A DNA stretch of 39,106 nt. It comes from a virus. Position 1 is the stretch's first letter. Each line of letters begins with the position of its first letter. Shown here piece after piece: positions 1-38,933 of the stretch. The position numbers and the translations under genes are program-made. The notes below the pieces were generated by a model. The model had not been told where the DNA came from. It saw only the letters and a list, made by a program, of their open reading frames with translations, and did not search any database. The DNA lies in UHGV virus genome UHGV-1488538; one strand, given 5' to 3'.

Positions 1-79
1 TTATCAATGAAGTGAACGGTATTTCCCGCGTGGTGTATGACATCAGCGGCAAGCCACCAGCGACTATTGAGTGGGAATG
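1..79 (+). CDS. guaA: 3' end of host GMP synthase gene (partial CDS, last ~25 codons plus TGA)
   Basis: Frame starting at nt 3 translates to ...INEVNGISRVVYDISGKPPATIEWE*, which I recognise from memory as the conserved GuaA C-terminus; no start codon in window. Confidence 0.6.
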
Positions 80-82
80 ATT
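66..82. repeat. attL core: 17-bp direct repeat ATTGAGTGGGAATGATT (second copy at 39044-39060)
   Basis: Exact 17/17 identity at both ends of the window; overlaps the guaA stop codon; integrase gene lies immediately inside. Confidence 0.8.
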
Positions 83-128
83 AACAGCTAACTCATAGCA
101 ACTCATTCCTATTCAGATACTAATTTAA

Positions 129-153
129 CCCTCTGTTTTTACAGAGGGTTTTT
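129..153 (+). terminator. Rho-independent terminator (CCCTCTGT-tttt-ACAGAGGG followed by T-run)
   Basis: 8-bp perfect stem plus T-tract; a near-identical hairpin sits at 39086-39106 beyond attR. Confidence 0.6.
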
Positions 154-205
154 GTTTTTATGTATTCATTTCTATTCACTCTACACCATATTTTTCGTCG
201 GTACA

Positions 206-245
206 GGTGACGGTATTACCTTAAAGGTATACTCTCATACCGTCA
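206..245. promoter_or_regulatory. Putative integrase arm-type sites: GGTGACGGTAT at 206-216 and inverted TGACGGTAT at 237-245
   Basis: Same 11-mer recurs at 38962-38972 next to attR; typical arrangement of arm sites flanking a tyrosine-integrase att core. Confidence 0.45.
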
Positions 246-272: not shown

Positions 273-1529
273 GTGCTTACCGATACAAAATTAAAAAACC
301 TCAAGCCGCAGGACAAACTGTACAAGGTCTCCGATCGTGACGGGCTGTATGTAGCTGTGCTTACGTCAGGCACGGTCTCGTTTCGCTATGACTACCGTAT
401 CAACGGTCGCCGCGAAACACTGGTAATCGGGCAGTATGGGCGTGACGGTATCAGCCTGGCAGAAGCGCGAGAAGAACTGATTGCTGCAAAGAAGCTGCTT
501 AAAGCAGGCCAGTCACCGGCTGCGGCTAAACGTGACGGTATTAAAAAGATTCGTGGTGCCGAGACGTTTGCGGTACATACCGACAGTTATATGAAACACG
601 TCATCCTGGCTGACAGTACCCGCGCAATGAAGCAGGCGGTGATCGACCGTGACATACTTCCGGTTCTTGGCAACAAAATGATGGCTGAAATTACCACATC
701 AATGGTTCGTGATTTGTGTGACCGGATTGTCGAACGCGGTGGTCGGGCAACAGCAGTACAGGCCAGGGAGATCATCAGCAGCGTATACCGTCACGCCAAT
801 GACCGTGGTCATGGTTTGTTTAATCCTGCGGCTGACATTAAACCTTCGTCTATCGCCATATTTAAACCACGAGAGCGAACACTGACACCAGAAGAAATTG
901 GCCTGTTCTTCCGCACGCTGGATGCCATTGGTGCTATGGGCACTATGAAAATGGCTTTAAAGCTGGTGCTTATCACCATGGTTCGTAAGGGAGAATTCAC
1001 CAATGCAACGTGGGATGAAATAGATTTTAAAAAATGGACATGGACAATTCCTTCAGACCGCATGAAGGGAAGTCGGGCGCACGTTATTTACCTGCCTAAA
1101 CAGGCACAGGATATATTAGTCGGGTTGCAGATGTGCGCTGGTGGAAGTGAATATCTGGTTCCTGGTCGTTACAATTTCCGGAAGCCATTATCTAATGCCG
1201 CGCTGAACTCTCTGATCGACAGAACGGTGAAAATAATAAATGAAGATGGTGAGCATATTCAGGATTTTACTGTACATGATATGCGCCGTACAGCCAGTAC
1301 ATTGTTGCATGAGGCTGGTTATCCTTCAGACTGGATTGAAAAGGCTCTGGCACACGAGCAGAAAGGTGTGCGCGCCGTATATAACAAAGCGGAATACGCC
1401 AGACAGCGCGCCTACATGTTGCAGCAGTGGGCCGATATGATTGATTCCTGGATTAACGGGGAGCATACGGATCTGATTCCGTTCTCCCCGTCGAAGTTTG
1501 AGAAGTGGATGGAAGACAGTAATAAATAA
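273..1529 (+). CDS. int: Tyrosine integrase (P4-type)
   Basis: ORF track 418 aa; N-terminus LTDTKLKNLKPQDKLYKVSDRDGLYVAV... is a typical P4-family integrase N-terminal domain; adjacent to attL; GTG start, exact start uncertain. Confidence 0.9.
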   Translation: MLTDTKLKNLKPQDKLYKVSDRDGLYVAVLTSGTVSFRYDYRINGRRETLVIGQYGRDGISLAEAREELIAAKKLLKAGQSPAAAKRDGIKKIRGAETFAVHTDSYMKHVILADSTRAMKQAVIDRDILPVLGNKMMAEITTSMVRDLCDRIVERGGRATAVQAREIISSVYRHANDRGHGLFNPAADIKPSSIAIFKPRERTLTPEEIGLFFRTLDAIGAMGTMKMALKLVLITMVRKGEFTNATWDEIDFKKWTWTIPSDRMKGSRAHVIYLPKQAQDILVGLQMCAGGSEYLVPGRYNFRKPLSNAALNSLIDRTVKIINEDGEHIQDFTVHDMRRTASTLLHEAGYPSDWIEKALAHEQKGVRAVYNKAEYARQRAYMLQQWADMIDSWINGEHTDLIPFSPSKFEKWMEDSNK

Positions 1530-4455: not shown

Positions 4456-5273
4456 ACGTACATATCCTGTTTGCGTGCCCACTCAGGGCGTTTAATAATT
4501 TCCACGCCGCCCCATTCATCGCTGATGCGGCATTCGTGATAGGTATTCAGATCCCGGCGGAACAGAGCGTGCCCGGCATCGACATCCGGCGCATCCAGCC
4601 CGAACACGCGTACCGGATACCGACCACAATCAATGCTTTCGCTCACGGCAAGAAAGAAAAAACCATGCGGCTGACCAGTAACCCTCATTGCGCCTTCGCG
4701 GTACATTGCGTCCTGCACGTGGTAGCGGAATTCCTCGATGTGACGTGCAAAACGGTCCATATCTGCAACCTTTTTCACGTCGACGATCACGTTGTGCTCG
4801 TTCAGCCATTTGTCTGGACGAATTCGGCACAACTCACCCGTCTCTTCATCGTTCCAGTACATTGATGCTTCGCAGTAACCAGGTGCTTCCAGCATCCAGC
4901 GTGCCGCCGGGTGAGCCATTGCGCTATCACGCATCAGCTCCAGTTTCCGCCACTGCTCGGCATCAAGTACCGTAATCCCCATATCCGCTACATCACGAAG
5001 AAATGCTTCTTCGTCAGCTTTACCTTGTTTCGTCCGACGATCGAACTTCGGTGAAACAATGAAGCGTTTGTCGAATTCTCCAGGCTCCAGAAGCAGACAG
5101 TGCAATGCGGTTCCCATATCCAGTGCAGACTTTTTCTCTTCGTCTTCTGGTGCTGCCTGAACCCATTTAAGAAGCGCCGGATTCTTGGCAACCATGTCCA
5201 GTTGCGACTTACTCACGCCGTCACCGGCGTGGTAGTCTTCGTTGCTGATGTCGAAATAAATTCCCGGTTTCAT
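4452..5273 (-). CDS. RecE-like exonuclease (PD-(D/E)XK)
   Basis: 273 aa, N-terminus MKPGIYFDISNEDYHAG typical of phage exonuclease VIII-like nucleases; partner of the annealing protein. Confidence 0.7.
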   Translation of the reverse strand: MKPGIYFDISNEDYHAGDGVSKSQLDMVAKNPALLKWVQAAPEDEEKKSALDMGTALHCLLLEPGEFDKRFIVSPKFDRRTKQGKADEEAFLRDVADMGITVLDAEQWRKLELMRDSAMAHPAARWMLEAPGYCEASMYWNDEETGELCRIRPDKWLNEHNVIVDVKKVADMDRFARHIEEFRYHVQDAMYREGAMRVTGQPHGFFFLAVSESIDCGRYPVRVFGLDAPDVDAGHALFRRDLNTYHECRISDEWGGVEIIKRPEWARKQDMYV

Positions 5274-11838: not shown

Positions 11839-12169
11839 ATCAGCAGCAGAGCGCAAAGCCGCTCAGAGAGCCAGACAAGCTGCATCTGGTGTGCGTAAGC
11901 TGGAGATTGTGCTTGATGCTCAGGAAATTGAAATTCTGGAGCGTAACTGTGCCACGCGTCGCCCCGGGCGTGCGCCTTACGAATTTGGTGAGTATATAGC
12001 GTTACTGATCCGCCAGGATGATGCACGCGTGCACGGGCGTATAAAATCGATCAGCAGAACACGTTGCGGTAAGTGCGGCGAGAGAGTTCCAGTTAATTCA
12101 TGTCCGTGTAATGGTGACTCACAATGCTGGGTGACTAAAGGCTGGCATGAAACGAAATTAATAGTGTGA
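11828..12169 (+). CDS. Hypothetical basic protein with C-terminal zinc-ribbon (CGKCG...CPCNG); candidate late regulator
   Basis: 113 aa; last gene before terminator and terminase operon. Confidence 0.5.
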   Translation: MMAKSAAERKAAQRARQAASGVRKLEIVLDAQEIEILERNCATRRPGRAPYEFGEYIALLIRQDDARVHGRIKSISRTRCGKCGERVPVNSCPCNGDSQCWVTKGWHETKLIV

Positions 12170-12177
12170 CATGTCAC
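12166..12177. repeat. 12-bp palindrome GTGACATGTCAC (copy 1 of 3)
   Basis: Exact; overlaps stop codon of gene 11828-12169. Confidence 0.7.
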
Positions 12178-14407: not shown

Positions 14408-14431
14408 GCCAGCTCATCGGCTGGCTGTTTG
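14408..14431 (+). terminator. Terminator-like hairpin after terminase (GCCAGC-tcatcg-GCTGGC)
   Basis: 6-bp stem, weak T tail. Confidence 0.45.
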
Positions 14432-14442
14432 TGACATGTCAC
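14431..14442. repeat. 12-bp palindrome GTGACATGTCAC (copy 2 of 3)
   Basis: Exact; abuts terminator hairpin and 3' end of minus-strand moron. Confidence 0.7.
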
Positions 14443-23745: not shown

Positions 23746-24209
23746 TGATCGATGTTCGAATTATTCCCGCTACCGAAGAGCATCTTCAGATGATTTTGCC
23801 GGATGTTCGTCAGGCTGATATTGACGAACTGTATGCGGTATCGCTGATGACTACCGAAGATGCGCTGCGTGTTGGTCTGCGCACTGCGACTATGGCCTGG
23901 TCAGGGTTCGCGAACGGAGAGCTGGTAACCATGTTTGGTGTATCTCCGGCGTCAATGATCGGTGGCAATGGTACGCCATGGCTGGTCGGGACCAGCCGTA
24001 TTGAAAAATATCAGAAGACATTTCTGCGCCACTGCCGCCCTGTATTGCAGCAGATGCTGGCAGTTTATCCGCGCTTGGAAAACTACGTCGACGAGCGAAA
24101 CCATGTTGCCAAAGCATGGCTGCACTGGCTTGGATTCAGGCTTGAAGAAGCCGCGCCTTATGGTGCTCTTGGTCTTAATTTCCACAGATTTCACATGGAG
24201 AGAAAATAA
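23745..24209 (+). CDS. Hypothetical protein (154 aa), internal virion protein A position
   Basis: Gene order only. Confidence 0.5.
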   Translation: MIDVRIIPATEEHLQMILPDVRQADIDELYAVSLMTTEDALRVGLRTATMAWSGFANGELVTMFGVSPASMIGGNGTPWLVGTSRIEKYQKTFLRHCRPVLQQMLAVYPRLENYVDERNHVAKAWLHWLGFRLEEAAPYGALGLNFHRFHMERK

Positions 24210-24748
24210 TGTGTAACCCAGCCATCGCTTTGGTTGCCGTCACAGTGGCATCCACAGCCGCGTCAATGTACAGCCAGAGCAAGCAGGCAAAATACCAGTC
24301 AGCCATAGCTGATCGGAATGCTGAAATTGCTGAAGCTCAGGCACAGGATTCAATCAATCGTGGGAATATTGAAGCGGATCAGCGTCGTCGTGAAATGCGT
24401 CAACGCTCAGGCACTGCGGCGGCCACTATGGGGGCTACCGGTGCGGAATTAAGTAGCGGAACAGCTCTTGACGTTTTTGCGGATAATGCTCAGTTCGGCA
24501 CTCTTGATGCGTTAACGACAGTGAATAATGCTCAGCGTGAGGCATATGGGTATCAGGTTCAGGGAATGAATGCTCAGGCACAGGGGGCTGCTGCTCAGTC
24601 GGCTGCTAAATCATCGATGACCAGCACTTTGTTAACGGCACCACTAAAAGCATACGGTGCATACCAGATGGGCGGCGGAACGTGGAGCCCGTTCTCTCAG
24701 AAGGCTGCGCCGATTTCTGCTGCTGTTGGCACTCCAACCGGTCGATAA
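24209..24748 (+). CDS. Internal virion protein B (T7 gp14-like)
   Basis: 179 aa; starts MC..., Ala/Gln-rich, C-terminus KAAPISAAVGTPTGR closely resembles T7 gp14 C-terminus as recalled. Confidence 0.7.
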   Translation: MCNPAIALVAVTVASTAASMYSQSKQAKYQSAIADRNAEIAEAQAQDSINRGNIEADQRRREMRQRSGTAAATMGATGAELSSGTALDVFADNAQFGTLDALTTVNNAQREAYGYQVQGMNAQAQGAAAQSAAKSSMTSTLLTAPLKAYGAYQMGGGTWSPFSQKAAPISAAVGTPTGR

Positions 24749-29078: not shown

Positions 29079-31553
29079 ATGAGACAGGAATGTATACAAG
29101 CGGTTCAGCAGGCGGCGCAGCGCATGTTAACGGCGCGAGAAATACAGAACATTGAAGACCGCATTTATCGAAATATGCGCTCCATTGCTCGTGATGACCC
29201 TATGTCGTGGCGACAACTTTCCGAATCAGAGCGGCTATATCGAGCAGCACAATTGGCATCTGAAGAATTACAGCGAGAAGCGGCATTAAAGAAACGTCGT
29301 GTGGCTCTCACTATAGCCGCGCGTCAGAGATTGGATAAATTTATCAATAGCTATCAAGGGGCTGATGGGAAACTTGGCGCTCTTAACCGTACTATAGCTT
29401 TTAATGCAGACGGTAAATCTAATTTCCTCTCTGTTGAATCCAGAACAAAAGCCACCCGTGATTATGCATTGAGTCAATTGCAGGAGGCATTCGAAGCAGT
29501 TGATCCTCGCTTTTTTGGTCTGTTTGAAGATGAAGCGGGCGTACGTGACCTGGTATATGAAATGCGGGGGCAAAATACTGGCAATGCTAAAGCAAGAAAC
29601 GGTGCTAAGGCGTGGAGAGAAGTTACAGAGCTGCTGCGCCGCCGGTTTAATGATGCTGGTGGGGACATTGGCTATCTCGAAAACTGGGGGATCCCTCAAC
29701 ATCATTCTATGGAAAAGGTTGGGGCAGTATCAAAGGATAAGTGGGTTAGCGATGTTATAGGTAAGCTGGATCGCAAATATTATATCCGAGCCGATGGACA
29801 ACTGATGAACGATGCAGAGTTGTCTTCATTTCTTGGAGAGGCTTATAACACGATCGCTACTGGTGGGCTGAATAAGCTTACTGATACCGGAATGCGAATT
29901 TCCGGCGCACGTGCTAACCGTGGTAATGCATCACGACAGATACATTTCAAAGATGCAGATTCCTATCTGCAATATCAGCAACTTTATGGCGATCGCTCTC
30001 TATGGGAAATCATGGTCTGTCACCTGGAAGGTATCAGTAAAGATATTGCACTGGTGGAAACATATGGCCCAAACCCCGATCATGTTTTCCGCTCTCTTCT
30101 TGATCAGGTGAAGGCAGAAACGGCAACAGTTAACCCGAGTAAAACCGGTAAAGTCGAGCGGCTGGCGAACAACACAGAGAATCTGTACAACTTTATTTCC
30201 GGAAAGACACAGCCTGTAGCGAATCCGCACATCGCGCGATGGTCTGACAATATCCGCAACTGGCTGGTTGCCAGCAGACTCGGATCCGCGTTGCTGTCAT
30301 CGTTCTCTGATCTTGGAACCATGTATCTGTCTGCGAAGGTTACCAACCTTCCAATGAACCAGTTATTCCGCAACCAGCTTGAAGCTATGGACCCAACGAA
30401 CCGTACAGAACTTGCGCGGGCGCGCCGCGCTGGTCTGGCGATGGAATCTCTACTTGGCAGCGTTAACCGCTGGGCGATGGATAATATGGGGCCGTCAGTG
30501 TCTCGTTGGGCGGCAACGGCGGTAATGCGTGCCAGTGGGCTTACAGCATGGTCAGATGCGCACAAGCGCGCCTATGGCGTAACCATGATGGGAAGCCTGG
30601 GAGAAGTAGTGTCACGGACACCAGACCTTCGTAGCCTCGATGACTCTGATTTTCGTATCCTGAAAAGCAAAGGGATTACTGACACAGACTGGAGCGTATG
30701 GAAGCTGGCGAAACAGGAGGACTGGGGGAACGGTAATAATACGATGCTGACACCGGAAAGCATTATGCGTATCCCTGATTCAGCAGTTAAACATCTTGGT
30801 GAGCCTGAACGCGTGAAATTTGAGGCAATGCGTAAACTGCTCGGTGCCGTAACTGAAGAAGTTGATATGGCTGTTATTACACCGGGAGCACGTGAGCAAC
30901 TGATAACCGGTTCTGGTATTCAGCGTGGAACATGGAAAGGTGAATTAACGAGAAGTGTTTTCCTGTTTAAATCGTTCCCTATCTCGGTTGTTATGCGTCA
31001 CTGGTCACGCGCTATGGGTATGCCGTCTGCTGGTGGGCGTGCGGCATATATTGCGACGTTTATTGCCAGTACGACCATTCTTGGCGCTTTGTCGCAGCAA
31101 CTTAACGACCTTGCGTCTGGTCGTAATCCTCGAGAGATGACAGGAGAAGATGCCGCAAAATTCTGGCTTGGTGCTCTACTGAAAGGTGGTGGTCTTGGCC
31201 TTTACGGTGACTTTTTATTGTCAGATCACACTAGGTACGGAAGCGGCGCGCTGGCGTCGATGCTTGGCCCGGTAGCTGGTCTGGTTGATGACGTAGTGAA
31301 GATTGCTCAGGGCATACCGTTAAATGCTGTGGAAGGGAAGAGTGAGCAGACTGGTGGTGATCTGGTGAAGCTGGGGAAAGGTTTGATGCCTGGTGCGAAT
31401 CTCTGGTACTTGAAGGCGGCTCTCGATCACATGATCTTTAACCAGATGCAGGAGTATTTTTCACCAGGCTATTTGCGTAAAATGGAGCAACGTTCGAAGA
31501 AAGAGTTTAACCAGACATACTGGTGGCGACCACAGGATGTCACTCCGCAATAA
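29079..31553 (+). CDS. Internal virion/ejection protein (gp16-like)
   Basis: 824 aa; gene order. Confidence 0.55.
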   Translation: MRQECIQAVQQAAQRMLTAREIQNIEDRIYRNMRSIARDDPMSWRQLSESERLYRAAQLASEELQREAALKKRRVALTIAARQRLDKFINSYQGADGKLGALNRTIAFNADGKSNFLSVESRTKATRDYALSQLQEAFEAVDPRFFGLFEDEAGVRDLVYEMRGQNTGNAKARNGAKAWREVTELLRRRFNDAGGDIGYLENWGIPQHHSMEKVGAVSKDKWVSDVIGKLDRKYYIRADGQLMNDAELSSFLGEAYNTIATGGLNKLTDTGMRISGARANRGNASRQIHFKDADSYLQYQQLYGDRSLWEIMVCHLEGISKDIALVETYGPNPDHVFRSLLDQVKAETATVNPSKTGKVERLANNTENLYNFISGKTQPVANPHIARWSDNIRNWLVASRLGSALLSSFSDLGTMYLSAKVTNLPMNQLFRNQLEAMDPTNRTELARARRAGLAMESLLGSVNRWAMDNMGPSVSRWAATAVMRASGLTAWSDAHKRAYGVTMMGSLGEVVSRTPDLRSLDDSDFRILKSKGITDTDWSVWKLAKQEDWGNGNNTMLTPESIMRIPDSAVKHLGEPERVKFEAMRKLLGAVTEEVDMAVITPGAREQLITGSGIQRGTWKGELTRSVFLFKSFPISVVMRHWSRAMGMPSAGGRAAYIATFIASTTILGALSQQLNDLASGRNPREMTGEDAAKFWLGALLKGGGLGLYGDFLLSDHTRYGSGALASMLGPVAGLVDDVVKIAQGIPLNAVEGKSEQTGGDLVKLGKGLMPGANLWYLKAALDHMIFNQMQEYFSPGYLRKMEQRSKKEFNQTYWWRPQDVTPQ

Positions 31554-31561
31554 AAGGAGAT

Positions 31562-31687
31562 ATGATGGTTCAAATAACTTTTATTGTACTAATATGTGCA
31601 GCGTTTTTATGCTATTCATACATTTTGATAAAAATGGGTTTCAATTGGAATCTCTGTTGCGTGCAGCGGCATGGTTCGGCTTTGTAG
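31562..31687 (+). CDS. Small hydrophobic peptide (41 aa), putative membrane protein
   Basis: AAGGAGA RBS then ATGATG; product MMVQITFIVLICAAFLCYSYILIKMG...; alternative overlapping track ORF 31537-31725 in another frame. Confidence 0.3.
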   Translation: MMVQITFIVLICAAFLCYSYILIKMGFNWNLCCVQRHGSAL

Positions 31688-31772
31688 TATTCGGAATTGT
31701 ATTGTTCGGAAGAATAATAAAATAACTAGTTAATTTGTGGATTGGTGCTGTTTTTCCATGATAGGGGTAATT

Positions 31773-32153
31773 ATGAGAAAAGTATTTTTGATTTTTGGAT
31801 TTATGCTTCTCGTTGGATGCCAGTCAGCTGCACAGTTTGAAAGAAATATGCTTACGTGGCGCGGGCAGAGTATAGACGCAATGGTTCAGCAGTGGGGGTA
31901 TCCTCAGGGAGAGCTTACATCTCCAGATGGAAACAGAGTGTATGTTTACTCAAGCTCTGGTAGTTATAACGTACCACAAACCACAACGTATAATACTACG
32001 TCTAATCTAATTGGTAATACTATATATTCAAACACATACGCAACAACTGATGGCGGTTATACACTCCATTTCAGTTGCTCTGTTTACGTTGAGTTTGGTG
32101 CTGATAAGATTATTAAAAATGTTACATGGCGCGGTAATAATTGCGTTGCGTGA
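31773..32153 (+). CDS. Lipoprotein (signal peptide plus lipobox LLVGC), moron
   Basis: MRKVFLIFGFMLLVGCQS...; AGGGG RBS; AT-rich relative to surroundings; track ORF from 31737. Confidence 0.7.
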   Translation: MRKVFLIFGFMLLVGCQSAAQFERNMLTWRGQSIDAMVQQWGYPQGELTSPDGNRVYVYSSSGSYNVPQTTTYNTTSNLIGNTIYSNTYATTDGGYTLHFSCSVYVEFGADKIIKNVTWRGNNCVA

Positions 32154-32161
32154 CATGTCAC
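32150..32161. repeat. 12-bp palindrome GTGACATGTCAC (copy 3 of 3)
   Basis: Exact; overlaps lipoprotein stop codon, abuts terminator. Confidence 0.7.
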
Positions 32162-32162
32162 A

Positions 32163-32186
32163 GGCCGCTTTCGCGGCCTTGTTTTT
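32163..32186 (+). terminator. Rho-independent terminator (GGCCGC-tttc-GCGGCC-TTGTTTTT)
   Basis: 6-bp GC stem plus T-run. Confidence 0.7.
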
Positions 32187-32225
32187 AACGAATGCCACCG
32201 CCGCCAGGGCGGGAATCCGCAGACA

Positions 32226-32248
32226 CAAAAAAGCCCGCGTCGCGGGCT
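32226..32248 (-). terminator. Rho-independent terminator on minus strand (GCCCGCG hairpin plus U-run)
   Basis: Convergent with the previous terminator; follows the 211-aa gene. Confidence 0.65.
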
Positions 32249-32255
32249 TAAAGAA

Positions 32256-32891
32256 CTATTTTATTGGCAGCTTATGCTTTGAAATTATGGCCAATCTGTT
32301 TTGGAAGTTTTCCGCATCACCCCACAACCAGGTTTCACCTTTCTCAAGCTCTTCCTCGTTATTCATCTCTATCAGCTCGCATGTCATCATGTCGTAACCA
32401 TAGAGGTGGAGGCCAAGTTCCAGTGCGTCATACATGCGAGCCTGCCAGAACGACATGCCTTCATGAGTCTGGTTGCGATCTGACACGATGATATCGTACC
32501 GTTCCAAGAGGTAGTTCATGAAGATGATGCCGGCGAAATCATGAAGCACAGCACGATGCTTAGGCTTCTGGGTTCTCCATACCAATATCTGCGTGACAGG
32601 ACGGCAGTTAAGATAGCTGTCAGGCTGGATAATGACACGATTGTAATACACTACCTCTTCGGTGAGGTCATTTATCAATGACAGTTCAAAGTGCGCCTGT
32701 GGAATCTCGCCTTTCTTACGATCGTCTACACGGACAACGCGGTATCCAGGAGCCAGAGAAACGCCTTTGACATCAGATGTGACATCGTTGCCGTTCACTA
32801 ACTCTGAATACAGGGCGCGGTTGTCTGGAGTTTCGTTCAGATGAGCGAAAACCTCAGTTACCTTTGCCGGATTCAGCAGTTGTTGTGGCAT
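32256..32891 (-). CDS. Hypothetical protein (211 aa), immI-region gene of unknown function
   Basis: ORF track; own upstream operator sites. Confidence 0.6.
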   Translation of the reverse strand: MPQQLLNPAKVTEVFAHLNETPDNRALYSELVNGNDVTSDVKGVSLAPGYRVVRVDDRKKGEIPQAHFELSLINDLTEEVVYYNRVIIQPDSYLNCRPVTQILVWRTQKPKHRAVLHDFAGIIFMNYLLERYDIIVSDRNQTHEGMSFWQARMYDALELGLHLYGYDMMTCELIEMNNEEELEKGETWLWGDAENFQNRLAIISKHKLPIK

Positions 32892-34600: not shown

Positions 34601-37063
34601 ATGACGGTCTCAACCGAAGTTGACCACAACGAATACACAGGTAACGGCGTTACGACATCATTTCCGTATACCTTCCGTATTTTCAAAAAATCCGACCTGG
34701 TTGTTCAGGTGTCTGACCTTAACGGTAACGTTACAAAACTAGTGCTGGATGCTGGTTATACGGTAACAGGGGCGGGAACTTATAGTGGCGGTGCAGTGGT
34801 TCTTCCGTCGCCGCTTGCTGCTGGCTGGCGAATCACGATAGAGCGTGTGCTTGATGTGGTGCAGGAGACTGATCTTCGCAATCAGGGAAAATTTTTCCCC
34901 GAAGTTCATGAGGATGCATTTGACTACCTGACGATGCTGATCCAGCGATGTTTTGGGTGGTTCAGACGTGCATTGATGAAACCATCTTTGCTTGCAAAAT
35001 ATTACGATGCAAAGCAAAACAGAATATCTAACCTTGCCGATCCATCACTTGAGCAGGACGCTGTAAATAATCGCTCAATGCGTAATTATGTCGATGCTGC
35101 AATCGCCGGAGTTATTGGTGGTTTTGGTTGGTTTATTCAGTATGGTTCTGGAGCGGTATACAGAACGTTCCAGGATAAGATGCGTGATGGTGTCAGCATT
35201 AAGGATTTTGGAGCTCAAAATGGAATCTTAAATGATAACAAGGATGCTTTTACAAAATCATTACATTCGTTTAGCAGTGTTTTTGTTCCGGAAGGGGTAT
35301 TCAATACATCTTTAGTTTCTCTTTCACGTTGTGGCTTGTACGGAACAGGTGGGGGAACGATAAAACAGTATGACAGAGATGGTAATCATCTGGTTTTTAA
35401 CATGCCCGATGGTGGCATGCTTAGTACGCTAACAATTATGGGAAATAAATCAGATGATAGTGTGCAGGGACACCAGGTGTCATTTTCAGGTGGCCATGAT
35501 GTATCGGTTAAAAATATCAGATTTACAAATACGCGAGGACCAGGATTTAGCTTGATCGCTTATCCGGATAATGGTATTCCGTCAGGTTACATTGTTAGAG
35601 ATATAAGAGGAGAGTATTTAGGGTTCGCAAATAATAAAAAAGCAGGTTGTGTGCTTTTTGATTCATCGCAAAATACGCTAATTGATGGTGTGATAGCCAG
35701 AAATTATCCTCAGTTTGGTGCAGTGGAACTTAAAACAGCAGCAAAATATAACATTGTCAGCAATGTTATTGGTGAAGAGTGTCAGCACGTTGTTTACAAT
35801 GGAACTGAGACGGAAACTGCCCCAACGAATAATATCATTAGCAGTGTAATGGCTAACAACCCAAAATACGCCGCAGTAGTTGTTGGCAAGGGGACTGGTA
35901 ACCTGATTTCGGATGTGCTGGTTGATTACTCTGAATCGGACGCAAAGCAGGCGCACGGCGTCACCGTTCAGGGAAATAATAATATTGCCAGTAATATTCT
36001 AATGACTGGGTGTGATGGGAAAAATGAATCAGGAGATCTGCAGGCATCTACAACCATTCGTTTCTTAGATGCTGCACGCAGTAATTATGCGTCAATATTC
36101 CCCATGTATAGTTCTTCCGGCGTGGTTACCTTCGAGGAAGGGTGTATCAGGAACTTTGTTGAAATTAAACATCCGGGTGACAGAAATAATATTCTGAGTT
36201 CTGCATCAGCGGTGACTGGTATTTCCAGTATAGACGGCACTACAAATAGCAATGTTGTTCACGTCCCTGCGCTTGGTCAGTACGTTGGGACTATGTCAGG
36301 GCGTTTTGAATGGTGGGTTAAATATTTTAACCTTGCTAACCAGACGCTTGTTTCTGCAGATAAATTCAGAATGCTTGCTGAAGGCGATGTATCTCTGGCT
36401 GTGGGAGGCGGTATAAGTTCGCAATTGAAATTATTCAATAGTGATAATACTAAAGGCACTATGTCGCTAATAAATGGAAATATTCGAATATCTACTGGAA
36501 ATTCAGAATATATACAGTTTTCTGATTCAGCCATGACACCATCGACAACGAATACTTATTCTCTTGGGTTGGCTGGTCGTGCATGGTCGGGGGGATTTAC
36601 CCAGTCAGCGTTTACGGTGCTGTCCGATGCGCGTTTCAAGACTGCTCCAGAGGTTATTGATGAGAAAATACTGGACGCATGGGAAAGAGTGGAATGGGTT
36701 TCATACCAGTACCTTGACAGGATCGAAGTGAAAGGTAAAGACGGAGCAAGATGGCACTTTGGTGCAGTTGCGCAGCATGTTATCAGTGTATTTCAGAATG
36801 AAGGCATAGATGTGTCACGACTGGCATTTATCTGTTATGACAAGTGGAATGAGACCCCGGCAGAATACAGGGATGTGACGGAAGAAGAGCATTCTGCAGG
36901 AGTTTACCCACTTATACAGACAAAGGTTCTGGTACGCGAAGCCGTCGAGGCTGGTGAATGTTACGGTATCCGTTATGAAGAGGCTCTGATTCTGGAATCT
37001 GCGATGATGAGACGCAGGGTTAAAAAGCTGGAAGAGCAAGTTTTGCAATTAACAGGGAATTGA
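34601..37063 (+). CDS. Tailspike with beta-helix depolymerase-like centre and C-terminal self-cleaving chaperone (S74-like) domain
   Basis: 820 aa; C-terminal LSDARFKTAPEVIDEKILDAWERVEWVSYQY... and coiled-coil tail match the intramolecular chaperone autoproteolysis domain. Confidence 0.8.
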   Translation: MTVSTEVDHNEYTGNGVTTSFPYTFRIFKKSDLVVQVSDLNGNVTKLVLDAGYTVTGAGTYSGGAVVLPSPLAAGWRITIERVLDVVQETDLRNQGKFFPEVHEDAFDYLTMLIQRCFGWFRRALMKPSLLAKYYDAKQNRISNLADPSLEQDAVNNRSMRNYVDAAIAGVIGGFGWFIQYGSGAVYRTFQDKMRDGVSIKDFGAQNGILNDNKDAFTKSLHSFSSVFVPEGVFNTSLVSLSRCGLYGTGGGTIKQYDRDGNHLVFNMPDGGMLSTLTIMGNKSDDSVQGHQVSFSGGHDVSVKNIRFTNTRGPGFSLIAYPDNGIPSGYIVRDIRGEYLGFANNKKAGCVLFDSSQNTLIDGVIARNYPQFGAVELKTAAKYNIVSNVIGEECQHVVYNGTETETAPTNNIISSVMANNPKYAAVVVGKGTGNLISDVLVDYSESDAKQAHGVTVQGNNNIASNILMTGCDGKNESGDLQASTTIRFLDAARSNYASIFPMYSSSGVVTFEEGCIRNFVEIKHPGDRNNILSSASAVTGISSIDGTTNSNVVHVPALGQYVGTMSGRFEWWVKYFNLANQTLVSADKFRMLAEGDVSLAVGGGISSQLKLFNSDNTKGTMSLINGNIRISTGNSEYIQFSDSAMTPSTTNTYSLGLAGRAWSGGFTQSAFTVLSDARFKTAPEVIDEKILDAWERVEWVSYQYLDRIEVKGKDGARWHFGAVAQHVISVFQNEGIDVSRLAFICYDKWNETPAEYRDVTEEEHSAGVYPLIQTKVLVREAVEAGECYGIRYEEALILESAMMRRRVKKLEEQVLQLTGN

Positions 37064-37835: not shown

Positions 37836-38454
37836 ACAATTCCAGCGAGCTGCTGGTATTAGCGAGGCGCTGGCCGCACGCTGGTTCTCGCATATAACGT
37901 CTGCGATGAAAGAGTTTGGTATCAGCAAACCCGAAGATCAGGCAATGTTTATTGCTCAGGTCGGGCATGAGTCTGGTGGCTTCAACCGGTTGCAGGAAAA
38001 TTTCAACTACAGCGTCACCGGACTGGCTAACTTCGTTCGGGCTGGGCGTCTCACCCAGGGACAGGCTAACGCACTGGGCCGCCGTGCTGGTGAGCCACCA
38101 TTGCCACTCGAGCGCCAGCGCGCGATCGCAAATCTGGTGTACAGCAAACGCATGGGTAACAATGCCTCTGGTGATGGCTGGAATTACCGTGGTCGCGGAC
38201 TTATCCAGATTACCGGTTTGAATAACTATCGTGACTGTGGAAACGGTCTTAAGGTTGACCTGCTGGAGAGTCCTGAACTGCTGGCGCAGGACGAATACGC
38301 GGCTCGTAGCGCGGCGTGGTTCTTTGCCAGCAAAGGATGCATGAAGTATACCGGCGATATTGCACGTGTAACTCTGATTATCAATGGTGGCCGGAACGGC
38401 ATCGACGACCGGCGCGCGCGGTACGTCACTGCCAGTAAGGTGCTGGCTATATGA
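37825..38454 (+). CDS. Endolysin, glycoside hydrolase family 19 (chitinase-like lysozyme)
   Basis: FIAQVGHESGGF...YRGRGLIQITGLNNY motifs; start at ATG 37825 (track ORF begins 37594 in same frame). Confidence 0.85.
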   Translation: MEIKQFQRAAGISEALAARWFSHITSAMKEFGISKPEDQAMFIAQVGHESGGFNRLQENFNYSVTGLANFVRAGRLTQGQANALGRRAGEPPLPLERQRAIANLVYSKRMGNNASGDGWNYRGRGLIQITGLNNYRDCGNGLKVDLLESPELLAQDEYAARSAAWFFASKGCMKYTGDIARVTLIINGGRNGIDDRRARYVTASKVLAI

Positions 38455-38933
38455 TCTGGGCATTCGTAAAAGCATATTGGAAACAGATGCTTATTGTGTT
38501 GATGCTTGCTGCTCTGTTCATCGTCGGAGTGGTTTCCTGGAATATACACGGCAGTCGCCAGTACGATGCCGGGTATGCGCAGGCGGAAGAAGACCGCAAA
38601 GCCGAAGAAGACAAAGTTCGTCAGTACTACGAACAGGAGAAAGTGGCCAATGAACGTGAAGCTCAGCAGAGGATCGACCAGGCGCGCAATGATGCTCTTG
38701 ATGCTGCCGCTCGCGCTGGCCGGTTGCAGCAACAACTCTTTGCCATCCGTGAGCAGCTCAGGCAGTATAACGCCATTGTCGGCGCTGGGACGTCAGCCGC
38801 AGACACCGGAGTTTTGCTTGCCGACGTGCTCAGCAAATCTCTCGAGAGAAACAGACAACTGGCAGAGTATGCTGACCGGGCAGCCGAAGCCGGAAGAGTC
38901 TGCGAAAAACAGTACGACACACTGACCAGATAG
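38451..38933 (+). CDS. Rz: i-spanin (Rz-like)
   Basis: N-terminal TM helix, coiled-coil periplasmic domain; ATGA overlap with endolysin. Confidence 0.8.
   Translation: MIWAFVKAYWKQMLIVLMLAALFIVGVVSWNIHGSRQYDAGYAQAEEDRKAEEDKVRQYYEQEKVANEREAQQRIDQARNDALDAAARAGRLQQQLFAIREQLRQYNAIVGAGTSAADTGVLLADVLSKSLERNRQLAEYADRAAEAGRVCEKQYDTLTR
38689..38925 (+). CDS. Rz1: o-spanin (Rz1-like lipoprotein) embedded in +1 frame of Rz
   Basis: MMLLMLPLALAGCSNNS lipobox; Pro-rich; entirely within Rz gene. Confidence 0.75.
   Translation: MMLLMLPLALAGCSNNSLPSVSSSGSITPLSALGRQPQTPEFCLPTCSANLSRETDNWQSMLTGQPKPEESAKNSTTH

Follow-up and report, generated by a model that had tools for sequence, protein, structure and literature searches.

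A conserved accessory gene for a predicted envelope lipoprotein beside the DNA-delivery genes of an epsilon15/phiV10-like prophage

The AT-rich stretch at 31562-32186 of the viral genome UHGV-1488538 (39,106 nt, a whole stretch referred to below as the window) carries, as the evidence well supports, a conserved, accessory and compositionally foreign gene for an envelope lipoprotein, fixed beside the genes for DNA delivery. By analogy with known exclusion systems, the encoded protein, a member of phrog_3716, may block the entry of related phages (superinfection exclusion), a proposal that is put forward tentatively and at somewhat less than an even chance. All features named in the initial annotation are present, and its interpretation is upheld in part.

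Results and discussion

Phage identity and gene order

The region with its flanks, used as a query of 901 nt, is 96-99.9% identical to Uetakevirus phages and E. coli prophages; the matches include phiV10, phiv142-3, PAS61 and vB_EcoP_ZX5 and the prophages of IAI39, APEC O1 and CE10. Genes in the window are arranged as in phiV10. Judged from its DNA, the phage is thus an epsilon15/phiV10-like member of Uetakevirus and an E. coli prophage; a P22-like identity was rejected, as the top DNA matches are Uetakevirus phages and prophages. The integrase at the start of the window is followed by the small and large terminases, the head and tail genes and an internal virion protein of the T7-gp14 family. 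Three large internal virion proteins of 837, 600 and 824 amino acids directly precede the region, and the gene of the last of these forms the conserved upstream flank of the slot described below. On the 3' side lie the convergent genes for a 211-aa protein and a BRO-N/Ant protein, followed by the tailspike and the lysis cassette (Table 1).

The query is matched by 548 E. coli genomes, mostly in part (the end of the 824-aa gene, or the palindrome and terminator), and the cassette is present in 34 of them. Strains of the K1, ExPEC and APEC types are among the carriers, and APEC O1 and CE10 carry the gene naturally in a prophage. The nucleotide query extended only 45 nt into the 211-aa gene, and two of the 34 cassette-bearing genomes match through the terminator and these first 45 nt; other records have a different gene in place of this neighbour.

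Table 1. Features in and around the AT-rich region, with positions in the window
Feature	Position	Strand	Basis or remarks
Integrase	273-1529		Gene order, start of window
T7_gp14-family internal virion protein gene	24209-24748		Family match
Last large internal virion (ejectosome) gene, 824 aa	29079..31553	+	phrog_684, E=0; equals phiV10p20, 'virion structural protein'
AT-rich spacer with broken small gene	31554..31772	+	GC 0.338
41-codon ORF: 5' half (helix 1) and out-of-frame tail	31562..31687	+	RBS AAAGGAG; one hydrophobic stretch
3' half (helix 2, ending ...AAAWFGFVVFGIVLFGRIIK*), other frame	31624..31725	+	tblastn and DNA alignment
Lipoprotein gene, 126 aa	31773..32153	+	AGGGG 7 nt upstream; signal peptide residues 1-15
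Perfect 12-bp palindrome GTGACATGTCAC	32150..32161	.	Overlaps lipoprotein stop codon
Intrinsic terminator of late/structural transcription unit	32162..32186	+	Terminator 32162-32179, then T run
Convergent intrinsic terminator of 211-aa gene	32221..32249	-	Terminator at 32249-32231
211-aa gene, phrog_1349	32256..32891	-	Convergent; mosaic neighbour, outside cassette

Base composition

The initial annotation had called this stretch AT-rich relative to the rest of the prophage, and a windowed GC calculation bears this out. GC is 0.387 at 31562-32186 against 0.491 for the entire window; just 0.3% of 625-nt windows are as low, and the stretch is the lowest-GC region of the window. The lipoprotein coding sequence has a GC of 0.402, so that in base composition, one of the marks of a moron, the gene deviates from its neighbours (0.40 against 0.49). 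Across hosts the lipoprotein gene keeps, in most loci, a GC of 0.39-0.41 and a GC3 of 0.32-0.40, against a GC3 of 0.45-0.66 for the gene upstream (five genera); the exception is the low-GC phage L033, in which the lipoprotein gene and its neighbour both have a GC3 of about 0.25 and show no contrast. The GC3 contrast across hosts indicates that AT-richness is a stable property of the gene, beyond that imposed by amino-acid content alone.

The lipoprotein and its family

The lipoprotein ORF begins MRKVFLIFGFMLLVGCQS, and its homologues favour the start at 31773 over an upstream GTG. The N-terminus, MRK-VFLIFGFMLLVG-C, is composed of a charged N-region, a hydrophobic core and a lipobox of the form [LVI][ASTVI][GAS]C. 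The signal peptide and lipobox, MRKVFLIFGFMLLVG, are followed by CQS..., with cleavage at LLVG / C, and the lipidated residue is predicted to be Cys16 (codon 31818-31820). Among 31 homologues Cys16 is invariant and Gly15 is found in at least 90%, which confirms the lipobox lipoprotein (LLVGC) that had been recognised at this position. Residue +2 governs the sorting of lipoproteins in E. coli; in the window protein it is Gln, and every homologue has either Gln or Ala there and none has Asp, which predicts that the protein is sorted to the outer membrane. Among the residues invariant in the homologues are the lipidated Cys, W29 and G31, the last three residues of the WGYP motif (its W is present in at least 90%), GN(x)VYVY, Cys102 and GNNC124; this pattern, with both Cys102 and Cys124, fits a periplasmic, disulfide-bonded domain.

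The protein matches phrog_3716, a PHROGs family with no assigned function, over its full length (E=5e-64), and no family match was found in Pfam, NCBIfam or PADLOC. A word-indexed search returned 37 protein clusters, all enterobacterial or metagenomic, and a profile search returned 3652 representatives at E<=1e-3, 1055 of them at E<=1e-10. Homologues of at least about 39% identity lie after the last ejectosome gene of an epsilon15-like phage in every locus examined but one, a prophage remnant in Enterobacter, and the same slot holds the lipoprotein in prophages of E. coli, Salmonella, Klebsiella, Enterobacter and Raoultella. Distant members of the family are found in ordinary chromosomal settings in many Gram-negative phyla, indicating that the fold is not specific to phage exclusion. 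The cluster names of these distant relatives, which are metagenomic singletons, are uninformative. Where dS can be estimated, dN/dS ranges from 0.03 to 0.14 against close homologues, and it rises to 0.36 for the most distant one; dS is saturated in the majority of pairs. The gene is evidently under strong purifying selection. Nothing on this lipoprotein was found in the literature on phiV10, epsilon15, Uetakevirus, ZX5, phiv142-3 or BamE-like prophage lipoproteins.

An AlphaFold2 model of the lipoprotein (pLDDT 86.9) predicts a BamE/BLIP-like fold, in which the two helices and beta-sheet typical of the outer-membrane lipoprotein BamE are present. Foldseek searches against the PDB returned mainly BamE chains, with high probability and weak E-values, and those against a viral library returned lipoproteins from Pseudomonas phages that are annotated as SmpA/OmlA; none of the matches was Llp, Rtp45 or another known exclusion protein. 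The Pfam model SmpA_OmlA (PF04355) gave no match at E<=1. A role as o-spanin (Rz1) was rejected, because the lysis cassette has a separate Rz gene (38451-38933) with an embedded Rz1 (...LALAGCSNN...), and phiV10 carries an equivalent Rz/Rz1 annotation.

The frameshifted small gene

A small membrane peptide had been proposed in front of the lipoprotein, encoded by a hydrophobic 41-codon ORF with a strong RBS. The ORF, the RBS and the hydrophobic stretch are all present, but the supposed peptide is a frameshifted 5' fragment. When the two frames listed in Table 1 were joined and the repaired protein was used as search query, intact homologues of 52-54 aa encoded by single ORFs were found (P0187 and P0185, the latter with the sequence MSHIIFIVIISGAFLCYSYAFDKKGFSLEPQARAAAWFGFVVFGLVLLGRLVGN), and these adjoin the 3' end of the 824-aa gene in the related prophages L051 and L053. 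In tblastn of P0185 against the window, residues 1-27 align at 31565-31645 in one frame and residues 21-52 at 31624-31719 in a second, the latter with 72% identity, and DNA alignment to the intact L051 and L053 genes places a 1-nt gap just past ...CYSY, at 31622-31623. The 41-codon ORF was accordingly rejected as a genuine peptide gene, and it appears to be the remnant of a pseudogenised gene for a two-helix membrane protein of 52-54 aa.

Thirty-four complete E. coli genomes contain the 219-nt spacer with at least 99.5% identity, all of them leaving it unannotated, and tblastn detects the same frame split in phage ZX5 and in the Phi05_1387 B record. Sequencing error was rejected as the cause of the frameshift, since it is identical in the 34 complete genomes and the split recurs in ZX5 and the Phi05_1387 B record. 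Programmed frameshifting at 31619-31626 was judged unlikely by inspection, as the site lacks an X XXY YYZ heptamer and has just a T4 run, and the metagenomic allele L052 regains the frame instead through an extra 26-nt deletion, which gives a 44-aa product followed by the same lipoprotein.

A variable slot for small envelope proteins

The slot runs from the stop codon of the 824-aa gene to the palindrome with its terminator, and both ends are conserved in phages that differ in what lies between them. The cargo consists of 46-aa two-helix proteins in phiV10 and SPN1S (phiV10p21 and SPN1S_0020), and of a 57-aa two-helix protein together with a 98-aa three-helix protein in phiv142-3; the 57-aa protein matches the repaired window protein with a blastp E of 6e-5 in a single pairwise comparison. 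L051 has the intact 54-aa gene and no second cargo. In Salmonella, Enterobacter and other loci the lipoprotein is the sole cargo and starts 2-10 nt past the virion gene, and in Klebsiella it follows a 143-nt spacer. In L009 (from a Raoultella genome) and L011, a gene for a hydrophobic membrane protein of 99-109 aa overlaps the lipoprotein start with its stop, and a similar 99-aa ORF in L035 ends 18 nt upstream of the lipoprotein; a hydropathy scan of the first two proteins found two hydrophobic stretches in that of L009 and one in that of L011. Finally, in L036 the lipoprotein gene directly adjoins the ejectosome gene on one side and the next large gene downstream on the other; from its position, this large gene should be the tailspike.

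The alternative cargoes are all small membrane proteins. Their variation between shared ends, along with the presence of the cassette in only 34 of the 548 E. coli genomes, indicates that the slot is a hot spot for small envelope-protein genes, in which the two-helix gene and the lipoprotein gene appear as separable modules that are sometimes found together. Presence or absence between collinear genomes, another mark of a moron, is likewise observed, as phiV10, SPN1S and phiv142-3 have the same flanks and other cargo. The view of the lipoprotein gene as an accessory and compositionally foreign gene after the ejection genes is therefore upheld by its variable presence between phages with the same flanks, by the GC3 contrast and by its intact state in the Enterobacter remnant.

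This remnant, in Enterobacter quasihormaechei, has the lipoprotein gene between guaA and an AraC/RND efflux locus and measures about 1.7 kb from guaA to the next host gene. It holds an 86%-identical copy of positions 3-216 of the window, a putative att region, together with fragments of a degraded integrase gene and of the 824-aa gene, the palindrome with one mismatch, the terminator and a scrap of ant. The lipoprotein gene is the only intact ORF left of a prophage that was originally about 39 kb, and its copy has a dN/dS of 0.03 against that of an intact Enterobacter prophage. In this one case, survival as the sole intact ORF with such a dN/dS is the signature of a gene retained for host benefit.

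Promoter, terminators and palindrome

No sigma-70-like promoter was found on the plus strand at 31690-31772 by consensus scan and inspection by eye, a scan that a weak or atypical promoter could escape; the sole nearby sigma-70 match (31537-31566, 9/12) falls within the terminal part of the virion gene. A promoter of its own, a further mark of a moron, was thus not detected for the lipoprotein gene. phiV10 shares the conserved terminator behind it, with an annotation to that effect, and as phiV10 has no lipoprotein this terminator belongs to the phage backbone. The terminator fold at the 3' end has a free energy of -21.5 kcal/mol (z -2.6).

The palindrome GTGACATGTCAC occurs in three exact copies in the window, at 12166, 14431 and 32150, where about 0.002 would be expected by chance from a length-based estimate. 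The copies are located just upstream of the small terminase, just past the terminator of the large terminase and where the structural operon ends. phiV10 and SPN1S, which have no lipoprotein, carry copies at the same places, and SPN1S has a fourth, with one mismatch, at the end of Rz. The TGA within the motif is often the stop codon of the preceding gene. The palindrome is a genus-wide punctuation element beside terminators, and it was rejected as the boundary of an inserted gene because it is a backbone motif with the same positions in phages lacking the lipoprotein. Of the bounds named in the initial annotation, the palindrome and convergent terminators, both are present on the 3' side, but the former belongs to this repeated backbone motif.

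Possible functions of the lipoprotein

For the phrog_3716 lipoprotein, exclusion of related phages at the stage of entry is the reading favoured here. The slot, between the last ejectosome gene and the backbone palindrome and terminator of epsilon15/phiV10-like temperate podophages, here contains a dead, frameshifted gene for a two-helix inner-membrane protein and the intact AT-rich gene for the 126-aa lipoprotein. The latter would fold in the periplasm into a disulfide-stabilised BamE/BLIP-like domain, of a fold class that typically binds proteins, and would probably be held at the periplasmic face of the outer membrane, bound to a protein partner. Its target may be an outer-membrane or periplasmic component used for DNA delivery, for example a secondary receptor or the incoming ejectosome channel, and by this binding a superinfecting phage would be excluded, or the ejection of progeny phage into infected cells or debris would be stopped. 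Such action would be like that of Llp, Rtp45 and Cor, or of T4 Sp paired with Imm, outside all those families.

Three analogies support exclusion: the SieA-like position of the slot, the Llp and Rtp45 lipoproteins, and T4 Imm and Sp, which form a comparable two-part exclusion system. Salmonella prophages carry the same lipoprotein with two different tailspikes, a pattern that speaks against a role specific to the O-antigen and favours a target that comes into play after adsorption. The difference in tailspikes is also in line with an accessory gene. The case is weakened by the lack of a detected promoter and by the coupling to the late operon in many relatives, in which the gene starts 2-10 nt after the virion gene. 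The failure to match PADLOC, the dissimilarity to Llp, Rtp45 and SieA and the distant relatives in ordinary chromosomal settings likewise count against it. Whether the slot as a whole is a dedicated entry-exclusion locus, with the BamE-like lipoprotein, with or without a two-helix partner, as a new structural class of exclusion factor, is more doubtful; the lipoprotein would then dock, on the periplasmic side, on an outer-membrane complex or on the incoming T7-gp14-like ejectosome channel and halt DNA delivery.

Lysogenic conversion for the fitness of the host would involve a strengthened or remodelled envelope, for example serum or stress resistance of the kind associated with lambda Bor, TraT and OsmE, or modulation of BAM by a BamE mimic. 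It is suggested by BamE and OsmE as the nearest in fold among envelope proteins, by the gene kept alone and under purifying selection in the decayed remnant, by the K1, ExPEC and APEC strains among the carriers, and by phiv142-3, in which other genes of the same region affect serum survival (PMC7724020). Such a role is nevertheless considered unlikely: homologues of at least about 39% identity lie beside the ejectosome genes of one phage group, the Enterobacter remnant excepted, the remaining cargo of the slot consists of small inner-membrane proteins of a kind typical for injection blockers, and Pfam SmpA_OmlA gave no match.

The lipoprotein may instead be made with the virion proteins, and not from the prophage, for a late function in the envelope of the infected cell during the lytic cycle, conditioning the outer membrane for release or protecting it until lysis. 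In Salmonella, Enterobacter and a number of viral contigs the gene starts 2-10 nt past the last virion gene, in L036 it lies between the ejectosome gene and the putative tailspike, and no promoter of its own was found, all of which is in keeping with this. The gene is however dispensable, being absent from phiV10, SPN1S and most E. coli relatives, the lysis cassette already has a complete Rz/Rz1 spanin pair, and the lipoprotein survives in a remnant without lytic genes, which together make a late function rather improbable.

Very improbable is a periplasmic inhibitor or immunity protein, directed against a peptidoglycan hydrolase, T6SS effector, colicin or beta-lactamase-like protein in the manner of BLIP and T6SS immunity lipoproteins, as no cognate toxin or enzyme gene is adjacent, a Pfam scan of the ejectosome proteins in the window detected no hydrolase domain, and fold similarity of this degree does not point to a target. 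That the ORFs are non-functional and the AT-rich stretch is non-coding filler can practically be dismissed: the small ORF is indeed broken, and unannotated in 34 of 34 complete genomes, but conservation (37 clusters by search, 3652 representatives by profile, dN/dS far below 1, invariant Cys and motifs) speaks decisively against it for the lipoprotein, so that filler would describe the 41-codon ORF only.

Implications

Envelope genes of prophages shape phage infection of clinical E. coli, Salmonella and Klebsiella and are thereby relevant to phage therapy and typing. The lipoprotein family is common in epsilon15-like prophages and previously unstudied, with a predicted fold unlike those of the known exclusion lipoproteins, and the wider family, a large one, is not covered by any Pfam model. 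Were the slot indeed an entry-exclusion locus, the 3652 unnamed relatives would extend the function or its parent fold across Gram-negative bacteria. The slot itself provides natural controls, in the form of phages with the same flanks that have the lipoprotein, lack it or have other cargo, and as the cultured phage vB_EcoP_ZX5 carries the gene, the exclusion hypothesis is directly testable.

Comparison with known systems

Among envelope proteins, BamE/SmpA_OmlA and OsmE are closest to the predicted fold of the lipoprotein, which differs from BamE and OsmE in four extra long beta-strands rich in N, T, S and Y, in its conserved Cys pair and in being an accessory gene product carried by a phage. 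Alignments to BLIP-like domains, the CAP-associated N-terminal domain (4ifa, 4h0a), YjgB/DUF4309 and the T6SS immunity protein BtiO extend over 60-76 residues with 13-23% identity, and all of these differ in partners and functions.

Llp of T5, Rtp45 of phage Rtp and Cor (phi80/N15) are phage lipoproteins of the inner leaflet of the outer membrane that act from the periplasmic side (PMC12685063, PMC9586334), and Llp and Rtp45 bind outer-membrane receptors from the periplasmic face (PMC12685063). Their genes lie near those for host recognition or entry, as does the lipoprotein gene here. They are however smaller (about 6-7 kDa against about 12 kDa) and belong to siphophages with known protein receptors (FhuA, LptD), whereas the present phage is a podophage without a known protein receptor. 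Kinship with these proteins found no backing: the lipoprotein resembles Llp, Rtp45 and SieA neither in sequence nor in fold, and it matched none of the Pfam models named for Cor.

P22 SieA blocks the function of ejection proteins (PMC10883804). The genomic logic of sieA is the same, with an accessory gene for a membrane protein placed right behind the ejection-protein genes and ahead of ant and the tailspike, and the P22 order 16, sieA, immI, 9 is paralleled here by ejection genes, accessory gene, ant and tailspike. The positional match to sieA noted in the initial annotation thus holds as a true positional analogy, within an epsilon15/phiV10-like phage and with no homology to SieA. SieA is a polytopic inner-membrane protein, whereas the gene considered here encodes a lipoprotein, with a soluble domain behind a cleaved signal peptide; among the cargoes of the slot, the small two-helix genes come closer to SieA and Imm than does the lipoprotein.

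Prophage ends and probable integration site

Positions 3-216 match the Enterobacter sequence immediately downstream of guaA and are followed by the integrase gene; the start of the window appears to be the prophage attachment site. As the lysis cassette ends at 38933, the window probably covers the entire prophage, inserted at the site equivalent to that adjacent to guaA in Enterobacter.

Enterobacter quasihormaechei carries a prophage remnant downstream of guaA (L054, 5000-6800), with approximately 1.7 kb separating guaA from the next host gene. The lipoprotein gene is the only gene left intact in this remnant. It is flanked by degraded pieces of the integrase gene, the 824-aa gene (in the window, the last large gene of the ejectosome) and ant, together with an att-like sequence that shares 86% identity with window 3-216.

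Positions of features in the window
Feature	Position	Strand	Remark
Integrase gene	273-1529		Follows the 3-216 match
Palindrome, copy 1	12166-12177		Exact match
Palindrome, copy 2	14431-14442		Exact match
Palindrome, copy 3	32150-32161		Exact match
211-aa gene, phrog_1349 (unknown function)	32256-32891	-	Converges on the lipoprotein gene
Tailspike gene	34601-37063		Encloses the AT-rich stretch 34826-35629

Lipoprotein superfamily and the preceding spacer

A search with the profile of alignment A2 groups 3652 cluster representatives at E<=1e-3 into the lipoprotein superfamily, whose members are spread over many Gram-negative phyla and are in part fused to SH3, MORN or SHOCT domains. This large superfamily has no Pfam or NCBIfam model and is a candidate new domain family.

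The broken small gene in the AT-rich spacer upstream of the lipoprotein gene is represented by a further allele on a metagenomic contig (L052, 4001-4135, compared with window 31562-31725), which has an additional deletion of 26 nt. Taken together with the 1-nt loss, it puts the gene back in frame; the product has 44 aa, and its first helix is shortened. This single contig hints at selection for recovering the C-terminal helix. In Klebsiella phage ST11-OXA245phi3.2 (L004), the lipoprotein gene is preceded by a spacer of 143 nt. An unannotated hydrophobic ORF of 39 codons lies within this spacer (4852-4971, - strand), on the strand opposite to the lipoprotein gene.

Mosaic and possibly exchanged regions

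Of the 34 E. coli genomes that bear the cassette, just 2 continue to match across the terminator and the first 45 nt of the 211-aa gene, these being all that the query covers of that region. Others have a DUF2335 gene or different genes in its place, so the sequence beyond the terminators is mosaic as well. Within the tailspike gene, whose product combines a beta-helix with a Peptidase_S74 chaperone domain at the C-terminus, GC falls as low as 0.386 in the second of the window's strongly AT-rich stretches. This would fit a receptor-binding module that is exchanged horizontally.

A recurrent palindrome

The exact 12-bp palindrome GTGACATGTCAC, of which no description was found, occurs three times in the window, always at a transcription unit's 3' end and adjoining a terminator-like hairpin. 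Copies 1 and 2 flank the terminase module. It may serve as a regulator-binding, termination-associated or module-boundary site. The related phages phiV10 and SPN1S carry the palindrome at matching positions; in SPN1S a fourth copy, differing by one mismatch, lies where Rz ends.
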